DNA of 62,877 bases from an uncultured Candidatus Saccharibacteria bacterium. Its GTDB lineage: Bacteria > Patescibacteriota > Minisyncoccia > Phycocordibacterales > CSBR16-119. Shown in pieces: positions 3,507 through 57,706 of the stretch. Both the position numbers and the translations under genes were made by a program. Within the stretch, counting starts at the first letter, position 1, and the number at the start of each line of letters is the position of its first letter. A model generated the notes under the pieces. It had not been told where the DNA came from and did no database searches. It saw only the letters and a program-made list of their open reading frames with translations. Where the stretch lies: positions 1-62,877 of the forward strand of contig CAZZCB010000003.1 in the NCBI GenBank assembly GCA_964652835.1, read 5' to 3'.

Positions 3507-6500
3507 CTAAATCTCCTTCAAAGATTCAATCATTATGCTTTTTTCTCCGTCACGAATACTGAGTTTACCCTTTATAGCTACGCATTTATTTTCCACCAAG
3601 TTTAGTGCGTGTTCACGGAAAGTCTCTGGGAAAGCCACAGCCTCCATACTTCCTTCTAAATCAGACATTTTGATAAACGCCATTTGTCCGCCTTTTTTTG
3701 TTATTACTTTTCGGATACTTTCGATTATAACCGCGCAAACAACATTCATATTTTGAAAACCTGTTTCCTGAAGTTTCTTTAGATTCATTCCTGTTTTATC
3801 TATTTTCTCTTTTACTCTGTCGAGAGGGTGACCAGAAATATAAAGTCCTAAAAGTTCTTTTTCCCAAACCAGTTTATCTTCTTTGCTGGCAAGTCCTCCT
3901 TCTTTTATAGAGAGGCGAGATTTTGGCGCCATGTCACCACCAAAAAGAGATCCTTGGTTTTTATCTACTTTTGAAAAAGATTTTGTAAAAGCTAGTAGCT
4001 CTTCCATACTTTGAAGAAATGTTCCTCTGTCGCCAAAGTCGTCTAGGGCTCCAGCCTTGATCAATGCTTCTAAAGATTTTTTAGTTAAGTTTTTATGTTG
4101 AACACGTTCTAGGAAATTTTCCATCGAAGTAAAATTCCCACCCTTTTTTCTTTCTTCAATGATTGCGTCAGAAATATCACCACCGAGGTTTTTTATTGTA
4201 TAGAAACCAAACCTGATTTTATCGAGCTTGCCTTCTTCTTCGTTTTTGATAACAGTAAATCCGCCGAAACATTCGTTTATGTGTGGTGAAAGCACTTCAA
4301 TATCCATTTTTTTACATTCAAGAATAATCTCAGAAACTCTTTCTACGTCACCTGACTCAGCTGTTAAAATCGCGCTCATATATGGAACAGGGAAGTTCGC
4401 TTTCATATACGCTGTTTTGTACGCTAGGTTTCCGTAACTGGCTGCGTGAGCTTTGTTGAATCCGTACGCGGCGAAAGGTTCGATCAGCGCCCAGAGTTCA
4501 TCTGCTTTCTTTTGAGTCATTCCATTTTTAAGAAGACCTTCCATAAGTTTTCCTTTTTCGGCCATCATAACTTCAGGAATCTTCTTTCCCATAGCTTTTC
4601 GAAGTTTGTCGGCTTCAAGCCAAGAATATCCAGCAAGTTTTATAGCGATCATCATGACGTCGTCTTGGTAAGTGATAACCCCATAAGAAAGGTCTAGAAT
4701 ATCTTTCATTCTAGGATCCAAAAATCGAATCAAAATTGGGTTGTGTTTTCTTTTAATATATTCAGGAATCATTTCCATCGGTCCTGGTCGGTAAAGAGCC
4801 ACCATCGCGTTGATGTCGTCTATTTGTGACGGTACAAGTTCTTTTAGATAACGAGTCATACCTGAAGAAGAAAGCTGGAAAACTCCCATAGTTTTTCCTT
4901 CTGCAAGCATTTTAAAAGTCTTTGGATCGTCTATCGGGATGGAGTCGATATCTATTTTTATGCCTTCGATTTTTTCCACCAGTTTGATAGAGTCGGCAAG
5001 AATAGCCAGGTTTCTGATTCCTAGAAAGTCAAATTTAATAAGCCCGGCGTCTTCGACGGCGTGCATGTCGTATTGAGTGATAATCTTTCCGCCTTTTGGA
5101 TCAAGCTGAACTGGTGCGTAGTCAGAAACTTCTGTAGGTGAGATTACCACTCCGGCCGCGTGAACAGAGATGTGTCTAGCACATCCTTCTATCTTTTTCG
5201 CCATGTCGATTATCTCTTTTACGACTTTGTCTGTCTCGTACATTTTTTTAAGTTCTGGTTCGACATCGAGAGCAATATCGATAGTCATCGGGAAACCTTG
5301 TTTTCCTAAAGGGATAAGTTTTGAGATTTTATCTCCGATATCATATGCAAATCCTAGTGCACGCGCTACGTCTCTCACAGCTCCACGAGCCTGCATCGTA
5401 CCAAAAGTACCGATCTGCGCTACTGCGCGTTCACCGTATTTTTGTTTAGCGTATTCAATAACCTCATCGCGTCTGTTGTCGGCGAAGTCCATGTCGATAT
5501 CTGGCGCTGAGGGACGCTCTGGGTTTAGGAATCTTTCAAACGGAAGTTTAAAACGAAACGGATCAACGTTTGTGATTCCTAAAAGATAAGTCGTAATAGA
5601 TCCAGCGACCGAACCTCGGATGTTTGTTAAAATTCCGTTTTCGTTTGCAAAACGAATAAGGTCACCCACGATAAGTAGGTAGATAGAAAATCCTTTGTTT
5701 TTAATAATCTCAAGTTCGTATTCTATTCGGGCTATTATCTCTGCAGATTCCTGTCCATATCTTTTTGGTATCCCTTGATAAACATATTTTTTAAGTTGCG
5801 ACTCTGGAGTGTGTCCGTCTTCGAGTCCGAATTTTGGAAAAACCCAAGTCCCAAGCTCAAGATTTATATCTACCATCTCTGCGACTTTCAAAGTGTTTTC
5901 TACTGCCTCTGGAATATCTTTAAAATATTCCATCGCACCAGCTGGGTCGATAAAGTGATAGTCTCCGTTAAAACGAAAACTTGTACTGTTTGTGTTTATG
6001 GCGAGCAAAGTGTTGTGAGCTTCGCTGTCGTCTTTGTGTAAGTAGTGAGAGTCCCAAGTGGCAACTATCGGTATGTCGTATTTTTTAGAAAGTCCGATAA
6101 GACCTTGTTTTACTGTCTCAGTACCTTCAACTTCAGCGTGGTTCATAAATTCTAAAAAGAAATTTTCTTTTCCGAAAATGCTTATATATTTTTCTACTAT
6201 TTGCTCTGCGTGTTCTGCATTTTTTGCTCTTAGTGATTGCGCGAGTTCTCCAGCCGGACAGCCAGAAAGACAGATTATTCCTTCGGAATATTTTCGTAAA
6301 ATCTCCTCGTCCATTCTTGGTTTGTAATAGTATCCTTCAAGAAAAGAAAGAGAGACAAGTTTCATCAAGTTTTTATAACCTTGATTGTTTTTTGCTAGAA
6401 GTGTCAGGTGATATCTTTTGTTGTCTATTCCTGCGTCTTTATCGTGGCGAGTTCTTTCTGCGATATATGCCTCGACACCGATGATAGGTTTTATACCAGC

Positions 6501-6674
6501 ATCTTTACACTTTTTGTAGAATTCTATCGCTCCATACATCGATCCGTGGTCGGTAAGCGCCAGTGCCGGCATATCGAACTCTTTGGCTTTTTTTACCAAG
6601 GCTCCTATTTTAGAAAGCCCGTCCAAAAGCGAGTAGTGAGAATGCGTATGAAGATGGACAAATTTGCCTGACAT
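3507..6674 (-). CDS. dnaE: DNA polymerase III alpha subunit
   Basis: 1055 aa; PHP-domain start VHLHTHSHYSLLDG; LTDHGSMYGA; ERPSAPDIDMDF; GLIKFDFLG; FNKAHAASY. Confidence 0.97.
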   Translation of the reverse strand: MSGKFVHLHTHSHYSLLDGLSKIGALVKKAKEFDMPALALTDHGSMYGAIEFYKKCKDAGIKPIIGVEAYIAERTRHDKDAGIDNKRYHLTLLAKNNQGYKNLMKLVSLSFLEGYYYKPRMDEEILRKYSEGIICLSGCPAGELAQSLRAKNAEHAEQIVEKYISIFGKENFFLEFMNHAEVEGTETVKQGLIGLSKKYDIPIVATWDSHYLHKDDSEAHNTLLAINTNSTSFRFNGDYHFIDPAGAMEYFKDIPEAVENTLKVAEMVDINLELGTWVFPKFGLEDGHTPESQLKKYVYQGIPKRYGQESAEIIARIEYELEIIKNKGFSIYLLIVGDLIRFANENGILTNIRGSVAGSITTYLLGITNVDPFRFKLPFERFLNPERPSAPDIDMDFADNRRDEVIEYAKQKYGERAVAQIGTFGTMQARGAVRDVARALGFAYDIGDKISKLIPLGKQGFPMTIDIALDVEPELKKMYETDKVVKEIIDMAKKIEGCARHISVHAAGVVISPTEVSDYAPVQLDPKGGKIITQYDMHAVEDAGLIKFDFLGIRNLAILADSIKLVEKIEGIKIDIDSIPIDDPKTFKMLAEGKTMGVFQLSSSGMTRYLKELVPSQIDDINAMVALYRPGPMEMIPEYIKRKHNPILIRFLDPRMKDILDLSYGVITYQDDVMMIAIKLAGYSWLEADKLRKAMGKKIPEVMMAEKGKLMEGLLKNGMTQKKADELWALIEPFAAYGFNKAHAASYGNLAYKTAYMKANFPVPYMSAILTAESGDVERVSEIILECKKMDIEVLSPHINECFGGFTVIKNEEEGKLDKIRFGFYTIKNLGGDISDAIIEERKKGGNFTSMENFLERVQHKNLTKKSLEALIKAGALDDFGDRGTFLQSMEELLAFTKSFSKVDKNQGSLFGGDMAPKSRLSIKEGGLASKEDKLVWEKELLGLYISGHPLDRVKEKIDKTGMNLKKLQETGFQNMNVVCAVIIESIRKVITKKGGQMAFIKMSDLEGSMEAVAFPETFREHALNLVENKCVAIKGKLSIRDGEKSIMIESLKEI

Positions 6675-10001: not shown

Positions 10002-10033
10002 AAATGCCGAAGGCGCAAGCCTTCGGCATTTTT
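10002..10033. terminator. Bidirectional terminator hairpin
   Basis: aaatgccgaagg-cgca-agccttcggcatttttt; closes both the + strand islet and the - strand surface operon. Confidence 0.7.
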
Positions 10034-11595
10034 TACAAACCAAGTTCTCTTTTAATCCTTCGGATAGTTAGCGCTCTTGTTGCGACTATCACTATTATTA
10101 CAATCAAAAATCCTAAGGCGATAGTTATCTCAGTTCCTAAAGAAGAAACTATAGAGTCAAAAGGTAAGAAAGAATTTCCTTTAATCTTTATTTCTACTGG
10201 ACGTGACCACTGACTTTGTGCACCTTTCGCATCGCTTACTCTAAACGAAATAAATACAATTCCTTTCTTTAAATCATCTTCTTCAAAAGTAAATCTTCCG
10301 CTAGCGCTTTGGAACTCTTGTCTTAATAAGAAGTTGTTTTTCTTGCTTGTTATTTTTGCTTCAATATTTCCGTTCGGAATAGTTTCTCCTTTTATCGTTA
10401 GAGTATCTCCAGCATTTATTCCAGCAGGGAAAGAAGTTACCTCTGGTGCCTCTAAAGCCTCTACTTCAATCTCTAAGAAAGATTCGTTTTTGTTTCCAGC
10501 TCTGTCATATGCTGTTATCACAAGCTCGTGCTGACCTGGGTCAATTCTCTCTAGCTTAATATTTCCATCTGCGAGGATTTCGTATTCCAAAGATTCTCCG
10601 TTTATGGAAAGTTCGAAGTTTTTAACACAAGAAGTTTTATCTTCTATTTTTAGAGCTATAACGGGTTTTGGATCTGTTAAGTCTCTCCTTTTAACTTCGT
10701 AAGCATCTATACTTGGCGGAGTGTGATCTATTTTTATTTTGAAATGTTCAGTTTCTTTCCATCCGTTGTTGTCTTGTAGACTCAGGTGAAAATACCAAAT
10801 TCCGTCTTCTAAGTTTTCATATCTTTTTTCGACTATTGCCGGACTGTTTATTGTAGATGGTTCGGACGTCGGGTTTCTGTCGAAAGATATTTTACTCGCC
10901 AGTGTACCTGTCGGTATATCCCAAGAGAACGACGCAGTGTTTTCTCTTCTCCAGACGACACCTGGATGCGTGCTTGAAGTTATGATAGAGTCTGGCTCAC
11001 AAACTTCACCCTCCTTTATTTCAGGAACTAGTGCCTCATCTATCGGCTTTAAATCATCAACCTTTATAACCTCTGGCTCTTTGACTGGAACTTCGGCAAT
11101 AGTAAAGCTGGCTGTTCCAACGGAGGCTAAAATGTTTGTTCCTACTCCATCGTTCGCCAAAACTGAAGAAGAAAAAATAGAAATACCCGCCGTTCCGGTA
11201 TTTTTACCTTTAAAGTTTATTGTTAAAAGTCTCCCAGAATTTCCTTGGTATCCTGGAGTTAGAACGACTCCTTCTAGTTTGATTTCACCAATTGCGTTTG
11301 AGAATGTTGGTTCTTGTGCCCAGAAATCTACGATAGAATTGTTTTTCGAAACAGATACAACCTGAAGTTTGTCAGAAGGGAATCTGATTGTTGCCGAAGC
11401 GGCGTTTATGGCTTTGTCAGGACTAGATACAAAGATTCCAACAGAGAAGTTTGCGTCTTTGTTGTATGTTCCAGATGCTGGAGAAAAGTTTAAGTTTGCC
11501 GCAAATAGATTTTGAGGAAAAGAAAAGACTAAAACAAACAATACTAAGAAAGCCTTTCCGATATTTTTTTGAATTCTTTTGACTGCCTTCTCCAT
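10033..11595 (-). CDS. Cohesin-domain surface protein with C-terminal TM anchor
   Basis: Signal peptide, then LNFSPASGTY..FSVGIFVSS..INAASATIRFPSDKLQVVSVS...GEIKLEGVV...LLTINFKGKNTG (cohesin-like); Ig-like middle region; C-terminal TM IALGFLIVIIVIVA + RRIKR. ORF open to 11622. Confidence 0.8.
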   Translation of the reverse strand: MEKAVKRIQKNIGKAFLVLFVLVFSFPQNLFAANLNFSPASGTYNKDANFSVGIFVSSPDKAINAASATIRFPSDKLQVVSVSKNNSIVDFWAQEPTFSNAIGEIKLEGVVLTPGYQGNSGRLLTINFKGKNTGTAGISIFSSSVLANDGVGTNILASVGTASFTIAEVPVKEPEVIKVDDLKPIDEALVPEIKEGEVCEPDSIITSSTHPGVVWRRENTASFSWDIPTGTLASKISFDRNPTSEPSTINSPAIVEKRYENLEDGIWYFHLSLQDNNGWKETEHFKIKIDHTPPSIDAYEVKRRDLTDPKPVIALKIEDKTSCVKNFELSINGESLEYEILADGNIKLERIDPGQHELVITAYDRAGNKNESFLEIEVEALEAPEVTSFPAGINAGDTLTIKGETIPNGNIEAKITSKKNNFLLRQEFQSASGRFTFEEDDLKKGIVFISFRVSDAKGAQSQWSRPVEIKIKGNSFLPFDSIVSSLGTEITIALGFLIVIIVIVATRALTIRRIKRELGL

Positions 11596-12434
11596 AAAAT
11601 GAAAGAGAGTATAAATGTACAAATTAAAATTAATATAGCTATTTTTTGATTAAAGCATTTGTGTCCGACGCAAATCTTTTCTGGTATGTAAACTTTCGAA
11701 ATCTTTTCATTTCCATCATAATCTATTGCCTTTACGTATATTCTCTCATTAATCTTTTGATTCACCAACACATACGGACTCTCTGCTTGTTTAAAAAGTT
11801 TTTTACCTTCTACAACTTCATATGTCTTTACACCAGAACCTTTGTCCATCGCTTCAAAAATCAAAACATATTTTCCTTCAGCGATATTTTTATCTTTAAC
11901 AAGTAATGCTTCGAAATCTTCAGGCGATGTTTTGTCCCGAGATGTGATCACTACATTTTGTTCGCCTTCACGCAAATCTCGGGCATTTATAGAAATATTT
12001 TTATTAGGAAGAGGCTCCTGTGTACCAAGTCCGTCGTTTAAAAGTATAAAAGTATCTTCAAGATTAAGAGGAAGATTGCCCGTGCTTTTAGGTACCACTA
12101 AAACTTGAAAAATTGTTCCATCTCCTTTAAAACCTCCGGCAATAATTCCCGAGAAATTTATTTGGTTATCCTTAGATCTAGAAGGGTTTTCTATCCAAGC
12201 CGAGATTATAGAGTTACCAGTTTTGATTTGTTTAATTTCTAAACCATTATCTACATTTAGTTTTCCGCTAACCGTGTTGTAAGAATTTCCTTCTGTTTTT
12301 AAGGCTATAGTTATCAAGATCTCATCACCAACTTTTATATCTTCAGAATTTAACATGTCAAAATCTATCAGACCGGCGGAAGCAGGCGAAGGAAAAAAGG
12401 TAAATAATATTAAAATGTAAATTAAATATTTCAT
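11544..12434 (-). CDS. Cohesin-domain surface protein with C-terminal TM anchor
   Basis: Signal peptide MKYLIYILILFTFFPSPASA; VGDEILITIALKTEG..YNTVSGKLNVDNGLEIKQIKTGNSII...INFSGIIAGGFKG..TIFQVLVVPKSTG; C-terminal TM. ORF open to 12449. Confidence 0.8.
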   Translation of the reverse strand: MKYLIYILILFTFFPSPASAGLIDFDMLNSEDIKVGDEILITIALKTEGNSYNTVSGKLNVDNGLEIKQIKTGNSIISAWIENPSRSKDNQINFSGIIAGGFKGDGTIFQVLVVPKSTGNLPLNLEDTFILLNDGLGTQEPLPNKNISINARDLREGEQNVVITSRDKTSPEDFEALLVKDKNIAEGKYVLIFEAMDKGSGVKTYEVVEGKKLFKQAESPYVLVNQKINERIYVKAIDYDGNEKISKVYIPEKICVGHKCFNQKIAILILICTFILSFILWRRQSKEFKKISERLS

Positions 12435-12436
12435 AA

Positions 12437-13477
12437 CTATCCGGTCCAATTAAATGCCAAAATACTAAAGTCTACCAGGTTAATCCTGCTATCTCCATTT
12501 AAACAGTTTGATTCAACTATTATAATGTCTCCAGTTAAAATTTTGTTATACCAAAAAGCAGCGATAGAAAAGTCTATTAAACTTACTTTTCCGTCCTGGT
12601 TTAAGTCAGCCCTGCAAGAAGTTTCTCCTGGGACTTTTGGAATGTTTTGGTCTCCAACTTGAAAGGCTACTCTAGTACCAAAACCACTAGATTCTCCAGT
12701 TTCAAGATTCGTTTTTGAGCGACTACTGTGTGATCCGTACTCTAAGGGGGCTGAGTTAAAGTTATAAAGATAAACCCCGTCTTCATCTGACGCTGCATTT
12801 ACAAAAATCTGCGTCTCCGAGTTTACCTCTATTGTTACGTCACTTTCGGGAACTGTTTGTCCAAAGATTACAATGTCGTCACCCTTTCTTACTTCTGCTT
12901 TATCGACGTCTATTGTTGGTGATAAGAATATCCCACTAACGTCTGTTGTTGATCCTTGGGTTATAAAAACAGGGAAGGAGAATGGATTTCCTGTTACTCC
13001 GTTTTCGTCGGTTGCTCTGACTGTGAAGTTGTAATTTCCTGGACTAAGGTCTCCCAAGCTTACGCGAAATCTTGCGTCAGGTCCAGCTATTGTCTCGACT
13101 GTTATAACTCCGTCTTTCAGTATCGTAACTTTTGAAAGAGGGTAGGCGCGTCCAGAAAAAGTAACTCCGGTTTCTGGTGGTCTTGTTCCTCCACCGCCAC
13201 CTCCGCCTCCACCCCCTCCGCTAGGCGGAGTCACTGTTGCCTCCTCATCATCGTCAGTGTAAGAAGAACAATCTGGGTCATTTGGAAAGTCTATAAAAGT
13301 ATCGCTGTCGTTGTCTTGTCCATCGAAACACTGTGGAGCCGGAACTATTGTGATCGTAAAGTTTGAGTTTTCTGCTGAATTTATTTCTGGGGTTTTTAAA
13401 ATAAAAAAATATACAAATAAGCCTACAAGAAGTATTAAAGAAAGAATTATAAATTTTTTTGTTTTAATTAATATCAT
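12437..13477 (-). CDS. Dockerin-containing secreted protein with an 11-Gly linker
   Basis: N-terminal TM; CFDGQDNDSDTFIDFPNDPDC; G11 tract; Ig-like middle; C-terminal duplicated EF-hand-like segments DLNQDGKVSLIDFSIAAFW and LNGDSRINLVDFSILAFNW (dockerin). Confidence 0.8.
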   Translation of the reverse strand: MILIKTKKFIILSLILLVGLFVYFFILKTPEINSAENSNFTITIVPAPQCFDGQDNDSDTFIDFPNDPDCSSYTDDDEEATVTPPSGGGGGGGGGGGTRPPETGVTFSGRAYPLSKVTILKDGVITVETIAGPDARFRVSLGDLSPGNYNFTVRATDENGVTGNPFSFPVFITQGSTTDVSGIFLSPTIDVDKAEVRKGDDIVIFGQTVPESDVTIEVNSETQIFVNAASDEDGVYLYNFNSAPLEYGSHSSRSKTNLETGESSGFGTRVAFQVGDQNIPKVPGETSCRADLNQDGKVSLIDFSIAAFWYNKILTGDIIIVESNCLNGDSRINLVDFSILAFNWTG

Positions 13478-13478
13478 T

Positions 13479-16400
13479 TTAACTTGCGATGATAGACAGA
13501 GTCATATCGATTGAATAATTACCTGATGCTTGTTCTGGTGGTATGGTCTGAGAAATATCTATGTCTGTTATATCCCAATAACAACCAGTGTCTGCGCCTG
13601 TGGCCGCACTTGCTAGAGTCACAGAGTTTGTCACTCCTTCATTAAAAGACCCCGAAGATCCAGAAGAAATGTTTGTCAGAGTACATCCGCCTTCAGGAGT
13701 TATGGTCGAAGTAGAAGGGTCTATGGTCATTTGTCCACCAAGTGAATCTGTATCTCCTCCGTCTAGAGCGCCTGCTGTTGGGTCGTTGAAGTCATAGTCA
13801 GAGGATACTCCATCCCAAAAAGATGTAGCTCCGGCATCTGCGGCGAGTGAAAGCGTCCAAGTGGCTGTACCGGTGCCGTTGTCTACTCTTATTTTTTGGC
13901 CAGATGTTCCAAAGCTTCCAGTCGAAATTTGATCGTCAAAAGAAAATGAGGCGCTAGTCATTGCTACAGTTGGGGCGCCTACTGGGGTTCCTCCCGCATC
14001 TACAATATCCGCAGAAAGAGCTCCACCGCCACCAGCTATTGTTATTTCCGGATAAGTAGTATATGTACCCAAAAGAGTGTCATCTGATTTAACAATTCTA
14101 AAACAGAAAGTTGTGCTGGCTGTAGCGCCGTTGTCCACTAGGGAGAAATCAAATTTAGCTGTTTGTCCGTTTAATACTGCTGACTCTGAGTTTGTAAAAT
14201 CGTTCAACTCTTCGTATGTTTGGTTTACTATTGTCCTCGCTCCGTCTGTCGGGTCGTTTGCATTACTAACCAGAGCTAGTCCGTCTGTCGGTGTGGCGTT
14301 ATCTTTATACGCAACTAACGTTGCGCCTGTTACATCTGTATATGATGCAGGAGTTCCTCCAGAAGGAGACGCGCAAGTTCCAGCTCCCATATCTACGTAC
14401 TGAAGTTTAAAATCCTGAGAACTAGAGTAGAGGTTTCCGTTGTCGACTCTTGTTAGAAGTCTTAGTCTGAATTCTTGTCCCGCTGTTGAAAGAGTTGCCG
14501 GGGTGTCTTGCGCTGCTAGAGCAGATCCCACATCAGCGCTGTCAGCGTTTCCAAAAAATCTATAAGCTTGCTGTGCGTAATTTTTCCCATCCCAAGCTGC
14601 GTATTGATATGTTGATCCACCTGTTTCGTTTACCTCTACTCCGACACCCAAAGAAAAACCATTTTTAATTAAGTTTGTTATTCTCCCTGTTAGGGTCGCA
14701 AGGTTGGCGAATGGTTGAGTCGCATCTCCTGTTTGAGCGGAAGTTCTTAATACTCCGTTGCGCGCAGTTCCTCCTGTTGTTTTTTTAATCCAAATATGGT
14801 CCGGCTGAAAACCCACCGCGGCTATGTTTTTTATCGTCGCATTACCGGTGTACGTACCTGTCATAAATTTTTCGTTATCTTGAAAAGCAAAGTAGTCGTA
14901 TATTCCGGCACTTGCGTTTGATACCGTACTAGAGCCAACTTGGAATCCATCTGCTGTAAATGATTGAATTACATTTGCTGTAAGAGCGAGATCAGAAAAA
15001 TAAAGGTTTTGGTCACCAGACTGATCAGAGGTTCTCCATACTCCTGCTGAAGTCCCTCCTCTTTTTATGGCAACAAGATCTGGAGACATTGGCAATCTAT
15101 CTATGTTCACACTGTCTCTACTTGTACCAATATATTGCCCAACTAAAAAATCAGGAGACCCGCCAGATTTATCTGGCTTCATGGCATTTCCAAAGGCGGT
15201 CCAATAATATGTGTCACCAAGAGTGTTTGCAAGTGCACTGGTTCCAACAGTAAAACCGTCGGCGGTTATAGAGGTAACACCCCCGGTAAAAACCGAACTA
15301 GTGTTTGACAGGGTCTGAGTCCGGTCTCCAATCATAAGACTCGTTCTAAAAATAGCGTGTTGGTCTGTTGCCTGGTCATCGTGCTTTATGATTATAAGAT
15401 CAGGTGAGAAACCAACGCCTGTTATACCGAGCGCCGCACCTGTTCCTGTATATGAACCACTATTTATCAGAAGCTCGTCAGTTCCCGCCGCTTTTGTGGA
15501 CGCCCCTCCGAAAGCTGCGTAGTGGTGTGTTACACCACTAGAGTTGACTGTTGTGGCGGCCCCGATTTCAAATCCACCACCAGATTTTTTAAGCGACTGT
15601 ATTATGTTCACAGTCGCGCCTCCGTCAGGTATGGCTGAAGATCTGTCTCCATAAAACTCAGAAGTCGTAAATACTCCGTTTTGGGGTGTGCCATGATCTG
15701 AGGCTTTTATCCATACAAAATTAGGAGTGAAGTCGAGATTTGGATCAACCGCTGGTCCAATGTGTCTTGAGTCCACCCCAGTTCCTGTGTAGGTGCCAAC
15801 ATCCATAAAGTCGTCCACTTCTTTGAATGCAACATAATAATAGTTGGTTCCATTTGAGTTTGCGCTCGAGTTAGAGCCCACGCTAAAACCAGTGGTATCC
15901 AGAGATTCTATACCCCCTGATGCCAGCTCATTCGCATTGTGAAAATAGTTCGAGGCTGTACCAGCCATTGACGATGACTTCCATATACCCACTGCTGAAC
16001 CTGATGTTTTTGTTATTACTAAATCAGGTTGAAACCCAACAGACGTGATGCTTTGCGACCCGCCATTTCCTGTATAAGTTCCGACACAAAAAGTACCAGA
16101 CGCAGAGCAGTCTGATCCATCAAATGCAGTGTAGGTAAAAAATACGTTTGCAGCGTTGACGTCTGAATCTGAGCCCACAGTAAATCCGTCCGCGTCCAAT
16201 GACTGAATTAGATTGTTTGCCGCGTTATCTGTTTCAGCAAGAACTACAGTAGTCTCACCAGACATTTCAGAGGTTTTTAAAAGCATTCCTCTAGTACCTC
16301 CAGCAGTGTTGTCTTTTAATAAAACCATATCCGGCGAAAAGCCTAACCCTGTGATGGTTCTGTTATCTGTGTTGTTTCCCACGTAGTATCCAGTCTGAAT

Positions 16401-16643
16401 AGAAAAAGTCGCCGCCTCCGCTTTTTCCACCTTGGGCTTCAGTAGTTCTGTTAACCCTTTGTCTATTACATTCCCATCTTTCTTAGCCCAATAAAGTGCG
16501 TCGATAATATTTTTTTCATCAACTTTTTCATTTATGTATGATATTAAAGAGCTTGAAGGTATTCCGCCAAGCAAAAAAGCCAAAACTAAAAAAAGAGTCC
16601 CAACGGGTTTTAATATTTTTTTAATAATTTGAAACATAATCAT
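13479..16643 (-). CDS. Giant secreted repeat protein (1054 aa) with a C-terminal WxL-like domain
   Basis: N-terminal signal/TM; six ~90-aa tandem modules (GF.PD.V.IK ... GF.VG ... Y.Y.AF); C-terminal ~190 aa paralogous to 19670..20371, including TATWTLSLAA and terminal DMTLSIIAS. Confidence 0.85.
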   Translation of the reverse strand: MIMFQIIKKILKPVGTLFLVLAFLLGGIPSSSLISYINEKVDEKNIIDALYWAKKDGNVIDKGLTELLKPKVEKAEAATFSIQTGYYVGNNTDNRTITGLGFSPDMVLLKDNTAGGTRGMLLKTSEMSGETTVVLAETDNAANNLIQSLDADGFTVGSDSDVNAANVFFTYTAFDGSDCSASGTFCVGTYTGNGGSQSITSVGFQPDLVITKTSGSAVGIWKSSSMAGTASNYFHNANELASGGIESLDTTGFSVGSNSSANSNGTNYYYVAFKEVDDFMDVGTYTGTGVDSRHIGPAVDPNLDFTPNFVWIKASDHGTPQNGVFTTSEFYGDRSSAIPDGGATVNIIQSLKKSGGGFEIGAATTVNSSGVTHHYAAFGGASTKAAGTDELLINSGSYTGTGAALGITGVGFSPDLIIIKHDDQATDQHAIFRTSLMIGDRTQTLSNTSSVFTGGVTSITADGFTVGTSALANTLGDTYYWTAFGNAMKPDKSGGSPDFLVGQYIGTSRDSVNIDRLPMSPDLVAIKRGGTSAGVWRTSDQSGDQNLYFSDLALTANVIQSFTADGFQVGSSTVSNASAGIYDYFAFQDNEKFMTGTYTGNATIKNIAAVGFQPDHIWIKKTTGGTARNGVLRTSAQTGDATQPFANLATLTGRITNLIKNGFSLGVGVEVNETGGSTYQYAAWDGKNYAQQAYRFFGNADSADVGSALAAQDTPATLSTAGQEFRLRLLTRVDNGNLYSSSQDFKLQYVDMGAGTCASPSGGTPASYTDVTGATLVAYKDNATPTDGLALVSNANDPTDGARTIVNQTYEELNDFTNSESAVLNGQTAKFDFSLVDNGATASTTFCFRIVKSDDTLLGTYTTYPEITIAGGGGALSADIVDAGGTPVGAPTVAMTSASFSFDDQISTGSFGTSGQKIRVDNGTGTATWTLSLAADAGATSFWDGVSSDYDFNDPTAGALDGGDTDSLGGQMTIDPSTSTITPEGGCTLTNISSGSSGSFNEGVTNSVTLASAATGADTGCYWDITDIDISQTIPPEQASGNYSIDMTLSIIAS

Positions 16644-17589
16644 AAGATGCTTTTGAAATCTCTGCCATTATTTCTTTCGCCTTCTCTCTACCACCGCTGT
16701 CTTTGGTGTTAACCATGATGGTTAACAGGTATGGTCTGTTTGGAACGTACACAATACCTGAATCAAGATATGTAGATTCAGGATCGTATTCACCTATTTT
16801 GTGAGAAAAAGTAATATTTTCTGGTACTCCGCTACCTAGGAATTCGTTAAATGGAGTTTCTGACAGCCAATTTAAAAGCATTGTAGAGTATTCTCTTTTC
16901 AAGAAGCTTGATGTGTATAGAGTTCTGAATACTCTGGAATATTCTTTTGCTGTTATATTGTAGTCTGCGTCGTAAAGACTCTCCATCCCGAGCGCTGCCA
17001 GCATTTGTTCAAAATCTTCACCCTCCAGGTTTCTTACAAGCATTCTGTGCGCAGTGTCATCTGAATTTATAATAAGCTCTTTTAAAAGTTCTTCTATTGT
17101 AAGACGTGTTCCAACTTGTTTTTTGTATAAATCTCCGAAGGCGTCATTTCTGTCTTCATAATAAAGTATTAGTTCATTATCAAGTTTCCACTCCTCCATT
17201 TCAATTTTTTTCATAACAACAAGCGCTGTTGGCATTTTAGAAAGGGAAGCTGGCCAAAATCTAGAGTCTTGGTTTATCGATACGTTTGCACCAGTGTTTA
17301 AGAATTCAAAATAAACTCCCACCCTACCTCCTTCTTTTTCATGTCTTGTAACGATTTCTTTAAGCTCCGACCGAAGAGGTTCTATTGTGGAGAAAAAGTG
17401 TTCTTGATCTATTAAACTTCTAGATGGATCTATAAGAGGATACGGATTTGAGAAAGAATTTTGTTTTTTGTCTCCTATAAATAAAACTCCTGTAAAAAAA
17501 CTTATAAGTAAGAGAAAAAATATGATACATTTTTGTTTTGTACTTAGATTGCTTTTAGGTATTTTACTTTGTTCTTTATTCTTATTCAT
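16621..17589 (-). CDS. Class-A beta-lactamase-like serine hydrolase, membrane anchored
   Basis: N-terminal TM; S-x-x-K (ASLSKMP), SDDTAHRML (SDN-like), HKIGE (KTG-like) in the canonical order. Confidence 0.7.
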   Translation of the reverse strand: MNKNKEQSKIPKSNLSTKQKCIIFFLLLISFFTGVLFIGDKKQNSFSNPYPLIDPSRSLIDQEHFFSTIEPLRSELKEIVTRHEKEGGRVGVYFEFLNTGANVSINQDSRFWPASLSKMPTALVVMKKIEMEEWKLDNELILYYEDRNDAFGDLYKKQVGTRLTIEELLKELIINSDDTAHRMLVRNLEGEDFEQMLAALGMESLYDADYNITAKEYSRVFRTLYTSSFLKREYSTMLLNWLSETPFNEFLGSGVPENITFSHKIGEYDPESTYLDSGIVYVPNRPYLLTIMVNTKDSGGREKAKEIMAEISKASYDYVSNY

Positions 17590-18376
17590 TTATTAAATTC
17601 ATTTGGCAGATAATAGAACTGTTCTTTGAACCTTTTTCTGTAAAAACAAAAGAAACGTTAAAATTTCCTTTTTGCGCCGTCACCATTTTTTCTATTAAAA
17701 TGTTTGTTGTTTGTTCTGCTGATATTGAAGTTTTGGTCTGGTTATTTTTTTTGAATTTTATTTTAAAACCAGACGGCACCCCAAGAACCTCGATATCTTT
17801 TGCAGTAGAAGCGCTTCCTGTGAGGATTATCTTTTTCTCTAGAGAATTCTGACTTGTCATATTCGCAGTAAAATTTTCCATCCTACAAGAATGGTCCGCT
17901 GACGGGTCTATTTGTATTTTTCTTTCTGGTGGCCGTACGGATATTTTAGGTATATTTGCTGGTGGTATGTAGATTGGAGAGATAATATTTTCTGGTTCCT
18001 CTTTATCTTCTTCTGTGGTCTTGACAACTACGGGCTGTGTCGCCACAGGGGAATTTGGCTCTGACACGGTTACAGGCGGTGGGACTGGTTCTGCTGGCGC
18101 TAACACGACTATTTCTTCCTGAGGGGCTTGATTTTGTGTCTCCGACGGGATCACTTCTGGGGCAGAGGGTTCTTCTACTGTGGTACCAGTCTCTACTCCC
18201 GCAACCTGACCCTCATTTCCCCCCAAGCTCTCTGTGGGTGTACTTTCTTGACCATCTGTTTCCGTGCTTGGAATCTCTGATTCCTGTGCGCTTGTATTTC
18301 TGATATGAAAAAAAGACTGTGTTAAGAGGCCTAATATTAAAAAAGAAAATATAGTTTTAGATGTGTTTTTTGTCAT
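17582..18376 (-). CDS. Secreted Pro/Glu/Thr-rich protein (264 aa)
   Basis: Signal peptide ..IRNTSAQE; low-complexity P/E/T-rich N-half; beta-rich C-half; overlaps neighbour by 8 nt. Confidence 0.7.
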   Translation of the reverse strand: MTKNTSKTIFSFLILGLLTQSFFHIRNTSAQESEIPSTETDGQESTPTESLGGNEGQVAGVETGTTVEEPSAPEVIPSETQNQAPQEEIVVLAPAEPVPPPVTVSEPNSPVATQPVVVKTTEEDKEEPENIISPIYIPPANIPKISVRPPERKIQIDPSADHSCRMENFTANMTSQNSLEKKIILTGSASTAKDIEVLGVPSGFKIKFKKNNQTKTSISAEQTTNILIEKMVTAQKGNFNVSFVFTEKGSKNSSIICQMNLINE

Positions 18377-18450
18377 ATTTTAGGTAGGTAATATAAGGTT
18401 AATATATCGGTTTCATTATACCAAAAATACAAAGCCGTGTATTAACACTT

Positions 18451-19641
18451 TTATCTTTTTGTGGAAGCGGATTTTCGTGGTGGCGGAACTTTTATTTCTT
18501 GACCTTCTTTTACCATAAACGGAGGTTTAATTTTATTTACCTCTACTAGAAGCTCCCAATGAACTTTGTTTTTTCTGGCGATGCCTTCGATTGTGTCTCC
18601 GGACTCGACGGTATAATCTGTCCATTTTTTAATCCACTTTTGTTTCTTTTTGTTTAATCTCCAAATTGCAAAAACAAAGATAGCTATAAACAAAATAGTT
18701 ATCTCTATAATTAACCCAAAAATAGTTGGAGCAGAGAAGAACCAAATAGTGTCTGATTTTACCTTTGTTAGTTTCTCTCCAGAAGATACACCGATGCTCG
18801 CATTTTTATCTGAATCGTATGAGAAAACCGCTTTTGCAAAATAAAGTCCACCCCAGAAAGGTCTCTTGAGCTCAAAGTTAAAATCATAAACTTCGTCACG
18901 AAGAACAGGGAACTCTCCACCGAAAGTTTTATGAGGTAATCCAAAGAAATATTTAACTTTTACTTCTGCTGTTGTGTCCACCGAAACGTTTCCAGTGTTT
19001 TTAACAGAAGGCATAAGGTAAATAGATTTATTTTTATTTTCTACTTTGAAATTTAAGAATTCTATTTTTCTTGAAATTTTACCAGGCACACTTACAGCCA
19101 CACGTATTCCACTTCGAAGACTAAGCGAAACTCCGGTGTCGCTAGCGTTTTGCTTAATCTCTTGGATAAGAACACATCCGTTATGTTCTCCGACAGATGC
19201 ATCTACAGGGACGTTTATATTAAAAGGAATAACAACCTCAGATCCCTCGGGTATTGTTATCTGTATTGTGTTTGCTTTCTCTCCTGGTTTGATGTTTGCA
19301 ATATCTTCTTCAAGATTTGAAATATCAAAAGTAATCCATTGTCCGACGCCAGTAGGTTCCTCTGAGAGTTGTTTACAAGCAAAGCCTCCGCCAGAAGATC
19401 TGACAGAGTCTCTGGCGTAAAGTAATAAGTTTTTAGATTCACCGGTGCTGTTTATAACTTTTACACCTTCACTTTTTAGTTCGCCTGGATTTATCGTTTG
19501 AACAAAGATAGAGTCTGTTCGAGGGTTTTCAGCTCTTGGGTATGCTGGCTTTATACCGAAATTAGCAGCCAAAATAATGCTTGGGAAAAAAAACACACTT
19601 AAAATAAAGAGGGTGAAGATTCCTTGAAAAGATTTTTTCAT
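18451..19641 (-). CDS. DUF916/DUF3324-like (CscA-like) surface protein with TM anchor and C-terminal LysM
   Basis: Signal peptide; FGIKPAYPRAENPRTDSIFVQTINPGE..VKVINSTGESKNLLLYARD; second beta domain; TM IFGLIIEITILFIAIFVFAIW + RLNKKKQK; LysM YTVESGDTIEGIARKNKVHWELLVEVNKI. Confidence 0.7.
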   Translation of the reverse strand: MKKSFQGIFTLFILSVFFFPSIILAANFGIKPAYPRAENPRTDSIFVQTINPGELKSEGVKVINSTGESKNLLLYARDSVRSSGGGFACKQLSEEPTGVGQWITFDISNLEEDIANIKPGEKANTIQITIPEGSEVVIPFNINVPVDASVGEHNGCVLIQEIKQNASDTGVSLSLRSGIRVAVSVPGKISRKIEFLNFKVENKNKSIYLMPSVKNTGNVSVDTTAEVKVKYFFGLPHKTFGGEFPVLRDEVYDFNFELKRPFWGGLYFAKAVFSYDSDKNASIGVSSGEKLTKVKSDTIWFFSAPTIFGLIIEITILFIAIFVFAIWRLNKKKQKWIKKWTDYTVESGDTIEGIARKNKVHWELLVEVNKIKPPFMVKEGQEIKVPPPRKSASTKR

Positions 19642-19669
19642 ATGAGGATTATAGCAAAAAATCTTAATC

Positions 19670-20371
19670 CTAAGAAGCTACGATAGAGAGGGTCATGTTT
19701 ATGTCGTAGTCAGAGGCTGCCGGTTGTTCCGCAGGGATTGTTTGAGAAATATCAATATCTCTAACATACCAGTCTCCAATATCGTCTGCACCTGATGCCG
19801 CAGTAACTAGGGTTATGGAGTCTGTAACACCTTCTTCGAATGAGTCTGATGCTCCAAGTGTTACTCCTGTCGTGTCACAAGTAGCGCAAGCCCCAGCAGA
19901 AAGAGTTGCCCCAGAAGGGTCGACTGTCATTTGTCCGGCAACAGTGTCAGTGTCACCACTGTCCGCACATCCAGCTGTTGTTGGGTCGTTAAAGTCAAAG
20001 TCTGTTCCCGCTGAATCCCAAACAGCAGTAGTTGCTGATCCAGCTAAAGAAACTGTAAATCCGTTGTCTGCCGCGTCAGGGTTTACAATATAGATTTGTT
20101 GAGACGCTGTTCCAAAAGTTCCAGTAGATGTCTGGCAAGAAAAGCTAAAAGCTGTCGATCCTAGAGTCACAGAAGGTGATCCGACCGTTACGTATGATGA
20201 ATCTGTAATATCTACTTCTATTGTTCCGGCTGTGATCGTTTGTTGAAAGTTAGACGTGTCTGCTGCTAGAACTAAACTTGTTCCGGAAGCCACGAAAACA
20301 AAAATAAACCCTAAAGCCAGAGTCTTTTTTAAAGAAAATCTTGAAATAATTAAAGTACTTATTTTATCCAT
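19670..20371 (-). CDS. Small secreted WxL-like protein (233 aa)
   Basis: N-terminal signal/TM; whole mature part paralogous to the C-terminus of 13479..16643; ends DIDISQTIPAEQPAASDYDINMTLSIVAS. Confidence 0.75.
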   Translation of the reverse strand: MDKISTLIISRFSLKKTLALGFIFVFVASGTSLVLAADTSNFQQTITAGTIEVDITDSSYVTVGSPSVTLGSTAFSFSCQTSTGTFGTASQQIYIVNPDAADNGFTVSLAGSATTAVWDSAGTDFDFNDPTTAGCADSGDTDTVAGQMTVDPSGATLSAGACATCDTTGVTLGASDSFEEGVTDSITLVTAASGADDIGDWYVRDIDISQTIPAEQPAASDYDINMTLSIVAS

Positions 20372-27734: not shown

Positions 27735-28044
27735 CTCCCCGAGTAGGGATCGAACCTACGACCAATCGATTACATTTACCCTAAAATTACTTAAAGGAAT
27801 GGACTATATCATCACCGTGTTCCAAATGGAATTTAGGTGCAAGGCGCTTCGGTCTTGAATTTCAAGATCTACTCCATAAAGGATAGTCTCTGAACCTTCC
27901 TCAACCTTTGAGGCTTGGCTGCTGATTACCCGCCATGTTAATGGTTTGGGCTTCCAGGCAATTCACCTTGTTTTTCATCCCTTCGTTTCCGGAGGGAGCT
28001 GCAATATCTTACAGTCGATTGCTCTACCGCTGAGCTATCGGGGA
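27735..28044 (-). tRNA. tRNA-Asn(GUU) interrupted by a group I intron (exons 28044..28011 and 27772..27735)
   Basis: Minus-strand exons UCCCCGA-UA-GCUC-AGCGGUA-GAGC-A-AUCGA-CUGU | UAA-UCGAU-UGGUC-GUAGG-UUCGAUC-CCUAC-UCGGGGA-G form a perfect cloverleaf. Anticodon loop CUGUUAA, U1-A72 and discriminator G as in bacterial tRNA-Asn. No encoded CCA. Confidence 0.8.
27773..28010 (-). ncRNA. Group I intron (IC3-like, 238 nt) in the anticodon loop
   Basis: P1: exon CUGU pairs with intron GCAG 8 nt downstream, giving U.G at the 5' splice site. Intron ends ..AAAUG (omega-G). Core UUCAGAGACUA and AGCCAAGC..GAAGGU, plus CCGGAAACGAAGGGAUG, resemble the Azoarcus/Anabaena tRNA introns as I remember them. 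Confidence 0.7.
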
Positions 28045-28280
28045 ATGTTTAGTTTTTTAATCTGGTTTCGTCCAGACGCCGACTTATAATATTTTTCTCT
28101 TTTTCTTGCCTCGGATAAATTCTGGAACTCTTCAGAATAAATTATTGCCCAAGGTTTAAACTTTGAAGTGAAAGTCGACTTCCCAGAATTATGTTCTGAC
28201 AACCTCTTTTCTAAATTAAGAGTACTACCTACATAGGTTTTATCGTAATTTTTACTTTTGAGGATATATACAAAAGGCAT
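28035..28280 (-). CDS. GIY-YIG nuclease family protein (81 aa)
   Basis: FVYILKSKNYDKTYVGSTLNLEKRLSEHN (GIY..YVG..R..H.N motifs); last 3 codons plus stop overlap the tRNA-Asn 5' end. Confidence 0.85.
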   Translation of the reverse strand: MPFVYILKSKNYDKTYVGSTLNLEKRLSEHNSGKSTFTSKFKPWAIIYSEEFQNLSEARKREKYYKSASGRNQIKKLNIPR

Positions 28281-56918: not shown

Positions 56919-57065
56919 CTTTCTTCGCTTTCGCGAATACTCCTAGTCTTCGGTGTGTATTATATCACATATTATATGCTTTTGTCAAGCTAAAATACGG
57001 CTTAAATAAAGGGTTTTTGGTGTTAAATCCAACAAAAAACACCCTAAAAGGGTGCTTTTTATTTG

Positions 57066-57147
57066 TGCCCAGGAGAGGACTCGAACCTCCACGGATTGCT
57101 CCATTGGTTCCTAAGACCAACGCGGCTACCAATTACGCCACCTGGGC
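57066..57147 (-). tRNA. tRNA-Leu(UAG)
   Basis: GCCCAGG-UG-GCG..UAAUUGGUAG..; anticodon stem UUGGU/ACCAA, loop CUUAGGA; long variable arm; T-arm GGAGG-UUCGAGU-CCUCU; no encoded CCA. Confidence 0.9.
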
Positions 57148-57215
57148 ATTATTATCTATTCAATTTTGTTCTACAATCTTACTTCAAAAATATTTCCTAC
57201 GCCAGGCTAGAGCTG

Positions 57216-57240
57216 TATTCAAACTTGCGCCACCTGGGCA
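57216..57240 (-). repeat. Fragmentary tRNA-Leu 5' copy, 92 nt upstream of tRNA-Leu(UAG)
   Basis: Minus strand GCCCAGGUGGCG + CAAGTTTGAATACAG, then ..AGCCTGGCGTAGGAA echoes the D-arm and anticodon loop of the real gene. Confidence 0.6.
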
Positions 57241-57295
57241 TGTAAATTTAATCAATAAATTTATGATTGAATACTATCATAAATAAATCAATTTG

Positions 57296-57368
57296 TCCTC
57301 TCGGTAGGGATCGAACCTACGACCGTCTCCTTAAGAGGGAGCTGCTCTACCAACTGAGCTACGAGAGG
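57296..57368 (-). tRNA. tRNA-Lys(CUU)
   Basis: CCUCUCG-UA-GCUC-AGUUGGUA-GAGC; anticodon loop CUCUUAA; T-arm GUAGG-UUCGAUC-CCUAC. Confidence 0.88.
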
Positions 57369-57392
57369 TGACAGATGAAAATATTCATCTTG

Positions 57393-57474
57393 TGCCCGGA
57401 GTGGGGGTCGAACCCACATCCCTTGCGAGACACGATTTTAAGTCGTGCGCGTATACCAATTCCGCCATCCGGGC
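57393..57474 (-). tRNA. tRNA-Leu(UAA)
   Basis: GCCCGGA-UG-GCGGAAUUGGUAUACGC; anticodon stem CACGA/UCGUG, loop CUUAAAA; long variable arm; T-arm GUGGG-UUCGACC-CCCAC. Confidence 0.9.
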
Positions 57475-57541
57475 AATATTTATTTTATTTTGAAAAGACT
57501 TTAATTCTTATACCACAAATGCCCTAGCACGTATACCCCTA

Positions 57542-57566
57542 TATTCAAACTTGCGCCATCCGAGCA
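57542..57566 (-). repeat. Fragmentary tRNA-Leu 5' copy, 91 nt upstream of tRNA-Leu(UAA)
   Basis: Minus strand GCTCGGATGGCG + CAAGTTTGAATATAG + GGGTATACGTGC (real gene: GGTATACGCGC). Confidence 0.6.
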
Positions 57567-57634
57567 ATATTTATTTTATTAAAAAAGATATTATCACATC
57601 TTTTTTAATTTCGCACTTTAACACTATCGTGTTG

Positions 57635-57706
57635 AGGCTGGGACGGGGATCGAACCCGTGCATGGCGGTTTTGCAAACCGCAGCGTTACCGCTTCGCCAC
57701 CCAGCC
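57635..57706 (-). tRNA. tRNA-Cys(GCA)
   Basis: GGCUGGG-UG-GCG-AAGCGGUAA-CGC; anticodon loop UUGCAAA; discriminator U as expected for Cys. Confidence 0.9.

Follow-up and report, generated by a model that had tools for sequence, protein, structure and literature searches.

A putative surface-display operon with a WxLIP-type membrane anchor in Candidate Phyla Radiation bacteria

The ultra-small bacteria of the Candidate Phyla Radiation (CPR, Patescibacteria) are thought to live attached to host cells, and their surface machinery is largely unannotated except for type IV pili and a few adhesins. How such cells hold proteins at their surface is the question raised by a locus in a 62,877-nucleotide stretch of DNA from an uncultured Candidatus Saccharibacteria bacterium (assembly GCA_964652835.1, contig CAZZCB010000003.1, positions 1 to 62,877; hereafter the window). 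An earlier note on this DNA had read three genes between positions 13479 and 20371 as a divergent counterpart of the WxL (Csc) surface-protein clusters of Firmicutes, made up of a small protein, a membrane-anchored protein and a giant protein. Our analysis identifies the membrane-anchored protein as a WxLIP-type anchor and the small and giant proteins as paralogues through a common C-terminal domain, and places all three in a longer operon that probably displays adhesin-like proteins on the cell surface.

The open reading frames (ORFs) named in the earlier note were all found on the minus strand at the coordinates listed below. Its gene order of small, middle and giant is correct, but the middle gene is not adjacent to the giant one, from which it is separated by genes for a 264-amino-acid (aa) protein and a β-lactamase-like protein. 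Three further conserved genes (10033-13477, minus strand) lie in the same operon beyond the coordinates considered before. With these three downstream genes and the two between the anchor and the large protein, the locus is therefore an eight-gene surface operon and not a three-gene cluster. The eight ORFs (10033-20371, minus strand) are closely packed or overlapping, and read from 5′ to 3′ they encode the small protein, the WxLIP-LysM anchor, the 264-aa protein, the β-lactamase-like protein, the large protein, a dockerin protein and two membrane-anchored cohesin proteins. The features on which the argument rests are these.

19670-20371, minus strand: small secreted protein, 233 aa, with a signal/anchor helix, a TSNFxQTIxAGT segment and the terminal domain (residues ~48-233).
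18451-19641, minus strand: WxLIP-like anchor, 396 aa, with a signal peptide, two immunoglobulin (Ig)-like domains, a transmembrane (TM) helix, a basic cluster and a LysM domain.
19162-19560, minus strand: DUF916/WxLIP_PGBD-like domain of the anchor, residues 28-160 (PF06030).
18733-19116, minus strand: second Ig-like domain of the anchor, residues ~176-303, in the position of DUF3324/WxLIP_HBD (Foldseek alignment).
18655-18723, minus strand: TM helix of the anchor, residues ~307-329, followed by the basic cluster RLNKKKQKWIKKW (AlphaFold model, hydropathy).
18484-18615, minus strand: LysM domain of the anchor, residues 343-386 (PF01476, E 6.9e-12).
13479-16643, minus strand: large secreted protein, 1054 aa, with a signal/anchor helix, five Pfam-matched DUF7483-type repeats and the terminal domain.
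13479-14027, minus strand: terminal domain of the large protein, residues 873-1054 plus the stop codon (local domain hidden Markov model (HMM), E 2.8e-82).

The middle protein had been described as a signal peptide, two β-domains and a TM helix in the manner of CscA, with an N-terminus (FGIKPAYP...) reminiscent of DUF916, and Pfam searches on its relatives, profile comparison and structure comparison agree with both descriptions. The DUF916 model PF06030 covers positions 1-120 of its 121 in the window protein at 20.5 bits, which is below the 27.3-bit cutoff, and is matched by 50 of 51 aligned relatives (best E 9.3e-11), all from CPR-type sources. A profile of this family matches the solved enterococcal protein EfmWxLIP1 (9i25_C and 9i1y_A; entry 9i25 is a WxLIP bound to a long WxL protein) over the entire first domain at E 1.4e-7. 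The AlphaFold model of the anchor, with a predicted local distance difference test score (pLDDT) of 87.8, consists of a signal peptide, two β-sandwich domains, a 32-residue helix (residues 307-338; hydropathy 2.8 over a 19-residue window) and the LysM domain. Its top Foldseek matches are 9i1y_A (E 2.3e-14, 282 columns, a 267-residue chain) and 9i25_C (E 5.3e-14), in alignments of ~285 columns that span both Ig domains with TM-scores of 0.55-0.58 normalised to the target; the next best are the pilus chaperones CfaA, CsuC and FimC (E ~1e-8). The leader is a hydrophobic N-terminus ending ILA-AN, and an FGIKPxxP motif is common to both groups of WxLIP proteins (FGIKPAYP in the window, FGIKPVFP on the other side). 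The second domain has diverged further, in that PF11797 (DUF3324/WxLIP_HBD) matches none of the 51 family members at E≤0.1 and fn3_5 matches 15 of them weakly. The Firmicute motif NQIDKxxxYFDLK is missing from the family, where a conserved (D/E)NPRT(E/D)SIFV is found instead (DNPRTESIFVHTL). Judged by these profile and model comparisons, the assignment of the anchor as a genuine WxLIP homologue is solid.

A LysM domain, which the earlier note had missed, follows the TM helix and basic cluster in 51 of 51 anchor relatives, and is therefore predicted to be cytoplasmic by the positive-inside rule; the net charge after and before the helix has medians of +4 and 0, respectively, across the 51 relatives and is +6 and +1 in the window anchor. 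By standard topology rules, a peptidoglycan-binding module would thus lie in the cytoplasm.

The paralogy of the small protein and the C-terminus of the large protein, also claimed previously, is borne out by BLASTP (94/192 identities, 49%, E 9e-47), a similarity far beyond chance. The alignment joins residues 48-233 of the small protein to residues 873-1054 of the large one and reaches the final residue of each. The shared motifs that had been quoted are real, apart from two slips: the large protein reads YDFNDPT instead of FDFNDPT, and the spacer between EQ and Y is four to five residues rather than three. Likewise, TATWTLSLAA is present in the large protein but lies ~125 aa from its C-terminus, not ~150. 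The small protein ends in ...DYDINMTLSIVAS, and the large protein carries VDNGTGTATWTLSL as its first motif and ends in ...NYSIDMTLSIIAS. This first motif is W-x-L in most relatives, W-T-L in the large protein and F-T-V in the small one. A local HMM search of the window found only two copies of the terminal domain and only one anchor protein; in particular, no third copy was found in a 1055-aa ORF (3507-6674), which by our own reading of its translation probably encodes DNA polymerase III alpha. Inspection by eye suggests a jelly-roll-like region in the large protein.

Searched against a library of 1.84 billion representative proteins, the terminal domain defines a family of 683 clusters at 50% identity (E≤1e-3) that is almost confined to CPR-labelled genomes and for which neither Pfam nor NCBIfam holds a model. 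Position and size were analysed in the 150 best representatives, 143 of which have complete domains, and motifs were counted in 142 sequences. The domain ends at the last residue of the protein in 137 of the 143 complete cases. Its carriers comprise 56 domain-only proteins of ≤300 aa and 94 larger proteins of up to 1961 aa, whose N-termini vary (DUF7483, Laminin_G_3, H_lectin, SdiA-regulated or nothing recognisable). Motif 1 has W in 135/142 and L at +2 in 104/142, with hydrophobic residues at +4 and -10 and an invariant N at -8. At motif 2 the expected Trp position is occupied by L, I or V and never by Trp, with Y at -6 and a hydrophobic residue at -2 retained. The domain also has four conserved cysteines.

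Between loci whose labels place them in different CPR lineages, the small protein (AlphaFold model with pLDDT 79 and a predicted template-modelling score of 0.70) keeps 52-70% identity, compared with ~40-48% for the anchor and the more distant of its listed relatives; for a surface protein it is unusually conserved. Its first ~15 mature residues are invariant or nearly so, yet the monomer is modelled there at pLDDT <50. Immediately behind the signal peptide, both this family (TSNFxQTI) and that of the dockerin protein (SNFxIxI) have an S-N-F motif, which could be a common signal for processing or recognition.

The earlier note had suggested surveying CPR genomes for the same synteny. Scanning one genome per species and mapping genes with local HMMs gave 79 loci, in 70 of which the small gene is followed directly by a WxLIP-like gene; a WxLIP-like ORF is present in 74 of 79, the large paralogue in 51, a relative of the 346-aa dockerin protein in 41, and relatives of the 301-aa and 529-aa cohesin proteins in 22 and 23, respectively. 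Gene order is constant across loci, and three more loci obtained by exact protein look-up concur. The gap between the small and anchor genes is usually a few bases to ~100 bp, or the two overlap. Tandem arrays of two to three small paralogues occur in several CPR loci, at least five in number, and two consecutive pairs of small and WxLIP-like genes in four. The sources are almost all metagenome-assembled genomes labelled CPR, which supports the CPR context proposed for this genome, with the labels Saccharibacteria, Paceibacterota, Peri-, Peregrini-, Kerfeld-, Gracili-, Dojka-, Levy-, Doudna-, Andersen-, Colwell- and Falkowbacteria and Microgenomates. Fourteen of the 79 loci are labelled Proteobacteria or Firmicutes; these labels are unconfirmed and GC content is uninformative. 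In 11 loci labelled Peribacteria or Gracilibacteria the operon ORFs are fragmented under genetic code 11, which is consistent with UGA recoding.

Based on these observations, we think it reasonably probable that the operon serves to display proteins at the cell surface in the way that the WxL clusters of Firmicutes do, with which it has at least one component in common by descent. The 396-aa WxLIP homologue would be held in the membrane by its single C-terminal helix, with both Ig-like domains outside. The small and large proteins, which are predicted to be secreted and appear to have no membrane anchor or sorting signal of their own, would be retained through their common terminal β-sandwich domain, bound by the WxLIP-like protein. 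We propose this retention because of the WxLIP homology of the anchor, the adjacency of small and anchor genes in 70/79 loci, and the precedent of strand insertion and of the 9i25 complex; in AlphaFold2 predictions for Firmicutes, the WxL sandwich is completed by a strand formed from a WxLIP loop (PMC10599100). In the CPR proteins, too, binding would probably take place by an inserted β-strand that completes the fold of the terminal domain; one candidate for the inserting part of the anchor is a conserved segment modelled with low confidence (residues 161-180, G-x-S-L-S-x-R-x-G-x-R). This would leave the N-terminal part of the large protein, which is variable and lectin-like, facing outward to bind a host or substrate, and the dockerin protein with the two membrane-anchored cohesin proteins may form a second, non-covalent tether.

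Several results weigh against this reading, most of them on whether the terminal domain is a WxL domain. The previous claim that it belongs to the WxL family is not borne out. PF13731 (WxL) matches none of 49 family members (the window protein and 48 relatives), even at E≤10, and Pfam and NCBIfam offer no credible family for the small protein and the same 48 relatives; three relatives have weak Peptidase_M73/camelysin matches (E 0.039), which we guess stem from the N-terminal SNF..AGTL segment. For direct comparison, genuine WxL proteins from enterococcal plasmids were confirmed against PF13731 (E 1e-41 to 1e-72) and 120 more were added. Using an alignment of 142 diverse terminal domains, hmmsearch in both directions against 124 small and three large WxL proteins (including 9i25_A) gave best E-values of 0.025-0.07 in tiny databases, which are non-significant, and hhalign returned probabilities of 0.9-2.6%. 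The only recurrent local match was the N..GW.L motif. In the PDB, neither sequence nor profile searches started from the small protein and its family rose above noise (matches such as TbpB or an mRNA export factor); a WxL profile likewise had no match there, and the solved WxL chain 9i25_A was found only with a large-WxL query. The small-protein model has a best Foldseek match of E 0.022 in the PDB and none at E≤0.001; the weak matches are the pilins CsuA/B, FimA and FimG and the archaeal cannula protein CanA (E 0.02-0.2, probability up to 0.96). The solved long WxL 9i25_A is outside the top 50 (E≤0.79); its partner chain 9i25_C is in the Foldseek library, and no small-type WxL is solved. Motif 2, as described above, is without Trp.

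Outside the domain question, the predicted cytoplasmic position of the LysM domain is hard to reconcile with wall binding. The DUF916/WxL-like genes of a Saccharibacterium, Southlakia epibionticum (SEML1_0626 and SEML1_0627), which may not be orthologues, were both non-essential in transposon sequencing of co-cultures (PMC10633639). Of the reading as a whole, the paralogy, the WxLIP homology, the conserved synteny and the domain architecture are shown here, and the binding of the terminal domain by the anchor, the strand complementation and the adhesive role are matters that we infer. Genuine WxL domains were not found in 82 fetched CPR loci. One further candidate source of E. faecium-like WxL genes, annotated as 'Klebsiella pneumoniae plasmid pSP4663_1' (CP069367.1), was set aside because its ORFs are heavily frameshifted and unusable; this scarcely annotated record, which includes a gene for a WxLIP with 60% identity to E. 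faecium WxLIP1, has the look of an Enterococcus-type sequence that is misassigned or of low quality.

Published descriptions of WxL domains place hydrophobic residues at W-10 and W+4 and D at W-8 (PMC9772566). The CPR terminal domain is WxL-like in every architectural respect, with its location at the extreme C-terminus, its occurrence in a small/large pair and a first W-x-L motif that is kept, and it is either a very divergent WxL domain or a WxL analogue.

The fold matches invite a different explanation, in which the operon encodes an usher-less, chaperone-anchored pilus: the small protein would polymerise by donor-strand exchange into a fibre, the large protein would be a FimH-like tip adhesin with a lectin part at its N-terminus and a pilin domain at its C-terminus, and the WxLIP-like protein would act as membrane-bound chaperone and base anchor. 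We regard this as unlikely, though several features fit it. Pilus chaperones are the anchor's best structural matches after WxLIP, donor-strand pilins and CanA are those of the small protein, and the latter's near-invariant yet poorly modelled mature N-terminus, its high identity across lineages relative to the anchor and its tandem paralogues in several loci would all suit a polymerising subunit. However, the small-protein matches are weak, the operon holds no usher or polymerase candidate, and the 'N-terminal' segment of the small protein recurs inside the large protein (EITIAGGGGALSADIV), and is therefore part of the domain and not a free extension. Firmicute WxL proteins, moreover, are described as a surface-attached platform and not as fibres (PMC9772566, PMC10599100). 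The broader proposition that a donor-strand polymer on a chaperone-like WxLIP, with a large tip adhesin, makes the CPR system and by extension Firmicute WxL a single-membrane counterpart of chaperone-usher pili is a long shot; if true, such fibres would form a class not recognised before and would be, alongside type IV pili, a candidate organelle by which episymbiotic CPR cells attach to hosts. We found no paper linking WxL with donor-strand complementation.

The lack of detectable WxL homology would also be expected if the terminal domain were an independent wall- or S-layer-binding module, unrelated to WxL and unbound by the WxLIP-like protein, with the genes being only envelope neighbours. 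Other envelope genes do accompany them in the operon (β-lactamase-like hydrolase, LysM, cohesin and dockerin). Against this stands the direct succession of small and WxLIP-like genes in loci of many CPR-labelled lineages, which argues for a functional pair, and the same three-part architecture defines the Firmicute WxL clusters (PMC10599100). We therefore judge such a module improbable and retain the WxL-like display operon as our preferred reading.

The remaining five genes of the operon are as follows.

17582-18376, minus strand: secreted protein, 264 aa, in which an acidic Pro-rich linker is combined with a β-domain at the C-terminus.
16621-17589, minus strand: class-A β-lactamase-like serine hydrolase, 322 aa, with an N-terminal anchor (PF13354, E 7e-41).
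12437-13477, minus strand: dockerin protein, 346 aa, with an anchor helix, a Cys/Asp-rich repeat, a Gly run, Big_6 Ig domains and a type-I dockerin (residues ~290-340).
11544-12449, minus strand: 301-aa protein made up of an N-terminal cohesin-like domain, an Ig domain and a TM anchor at the C-terminus.
10033-11622, minus strand: 529-aa protein, paralogous to the 301-aa one, in which a cohesin-like domain is joined by Big_13 domains and a TM anchor at the C-terminus.

The two genes between the anchor and the large protein are accessory. The 264-aa gene, whose product has no family match, was detected in 6/79 loci, and the β-lactamase-like gene in 15/79, at the same position. The β-lactamase-like protein is probably not a resistance enzyme, because its scores against the NCBIfam resistance families are all far below cutoff; by eye it has an S-x-x-K motif (SLSK) but reads SDD and KIG where SDN and KTG are usual. 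Further downstream, Dockerin_1 matches 21 of 24 relatives of the 346-aa protein (best E 2.8e-9), and the family profile matches the solved dockerin 2y3n_B (E 8e-7). Cohesin matches in relatives of the 301-aa and 529-aa proteins are weak overall (6/29, best E 1.8e-7), and the profile of this family matches the scaffoldin cohesin 5aoz_A at E 4.8e-5. Type-I dockerin and cohesin modules are thus encoded together in the operon and may pair. The essential dockerin protein SEML1_0315 of S. epibionticum was considered as an orthologue of the operon's dockerin gene and rejected, as it stands alone in a different context.

Elsewhere in the window, a group I catalytic intron (27780-28021, minus strand; Rfam RF00028, 65.9 bits, E 1.7e-14) lies in an ORF-poor gap of 1.5 kb, with no rRNA or tRNA host gene detected at it. 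Directly upstream of the intron is an 81-aa ORF (28035-28280, minus strand) that by eye has the look of a GIY-YIG (homing-endonuclease-type) protein. At 57065-57706 on the minus strand, four genes for tRNAs (Leu-TAG, Lys-CTT, Leu-TAA and Cys-GCA) are clustered.

The earlier note was not aware of WxL/Csc clusters described outside Firmicutes, and its claim of novelty is too strong. About 9% of Pfam WxL sequences are from outside Firmicutes (PMC9772566), one CPR relative of the anchor is already named 'DUF916 domain-containing protein' at NCBI, and the SEML1_0626/0627 pair is listed without comment in Table S2 of PMC10633639 and absent from the main text of that paper. A 2019 survey of CPR-enriched families reported many unannotated membrane or extracellular families, but not this system, and our search of a literature library returned no paper linking CPR with WxL or DUF916. 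The present analysis ties a component of a CPR operon to an experimentally studied system, the enterococcal WxLIP with its solved structures, and so extends the WxLIP scaffold well beyond Bacilli. It also defines the large terminal-domain family described above and offers a testable model of how CPR cells hold variable lectin-like proteins at their surface. The fold similarity to pilus chaperones and pilins hints that WxL systems and donor-strand assembly may be linked in mechanism.

Among known systems, cellulosome-type complexes resemble the downstream part of the operon in having type-I dockerin and cohesin-like modules, with the CPR cohesin proteins membrane-anchored like anchoring scaffoldins. 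Unlike in cellulosomes, no glycoside hydrolases are attached, there are one dockerin protein and two single-cohesin anchors, and the cohesin matches are weak. Chaperone-usher pili (Csu, CFA/I and type 1) share with the operon a two-Ig chaperone-resembling partner, a pilin-like subunit domain with an incomplete Ig fold and a two-part adhesin whose pilin-like domain is C-terminal. This likeness is structural only (Foldseek) and weak for the subunit, and the CPR system differs in having no outer membrane, a membrane-anchored chaperone-like protein and no usher, with no usher-like gene found in the operon among the listed ORFs or by Pfam.

A CPR parallel, compared by table entries (Table S2 of PMC10633639), is the pair of adjacent genes in S. 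epibionticum encoding a DUF916-like two-Ig protein and a small protein, with a giant repeat protein encoded next door. SEML1_0626 is DUF916-like and Caf1M-like; SEML1_0627 has a 'WxL domain-containing protein' as its best AlphaFold-DB match and the Csu pilin CsuE as its ECOD match (PMC10633639). Unlike in the window, the S. epibionticum anchor has 316 aa and no LysM, and its small protein has 188 aa.

The WxL (Csc) clusters of Lactobacillales and Bacillales consist of a small WxL protein, a WxLIP (DUF916-DUF3324-TM) and a large WxL protein. The earlier note held that the locus mirrors them; the layout does fit the published definition (PMC10599100), but both presumed WxL proteins fail the WxL domain test. 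The CPR small and large copies are of the same domain type, without detectable sequence or profile similarity to PF13731 and without a second Trp, whereas small and large WxL proteins of Firmicutes differ in topology. The four conserved cysteines, the extra LysM after the TM helix of the anchor, the replacement of NQIDKxxxYFDLK, and the lack of an LPXTG protein or sortase in the operon are further differences, and the CPR operon, with CPR bacteria as its hosts, adds the dockerin protein and the two cohesin proteins. In common, the two systems have a homologous WxLIP-type anchor with a signal peptide, two Ig-like domains and a C-terminal TM helix; a small domain-only protein accompanied by a large protein that joins variable outward domains to the same terminal domain; the location of this domain at the extreme C-terminus, with a first W-x-L motif and matching flanking hydrophobic positions; genes that lie within four genes of one another; and, in several CPR loci as in Firmicute clusters, multiple small genes.

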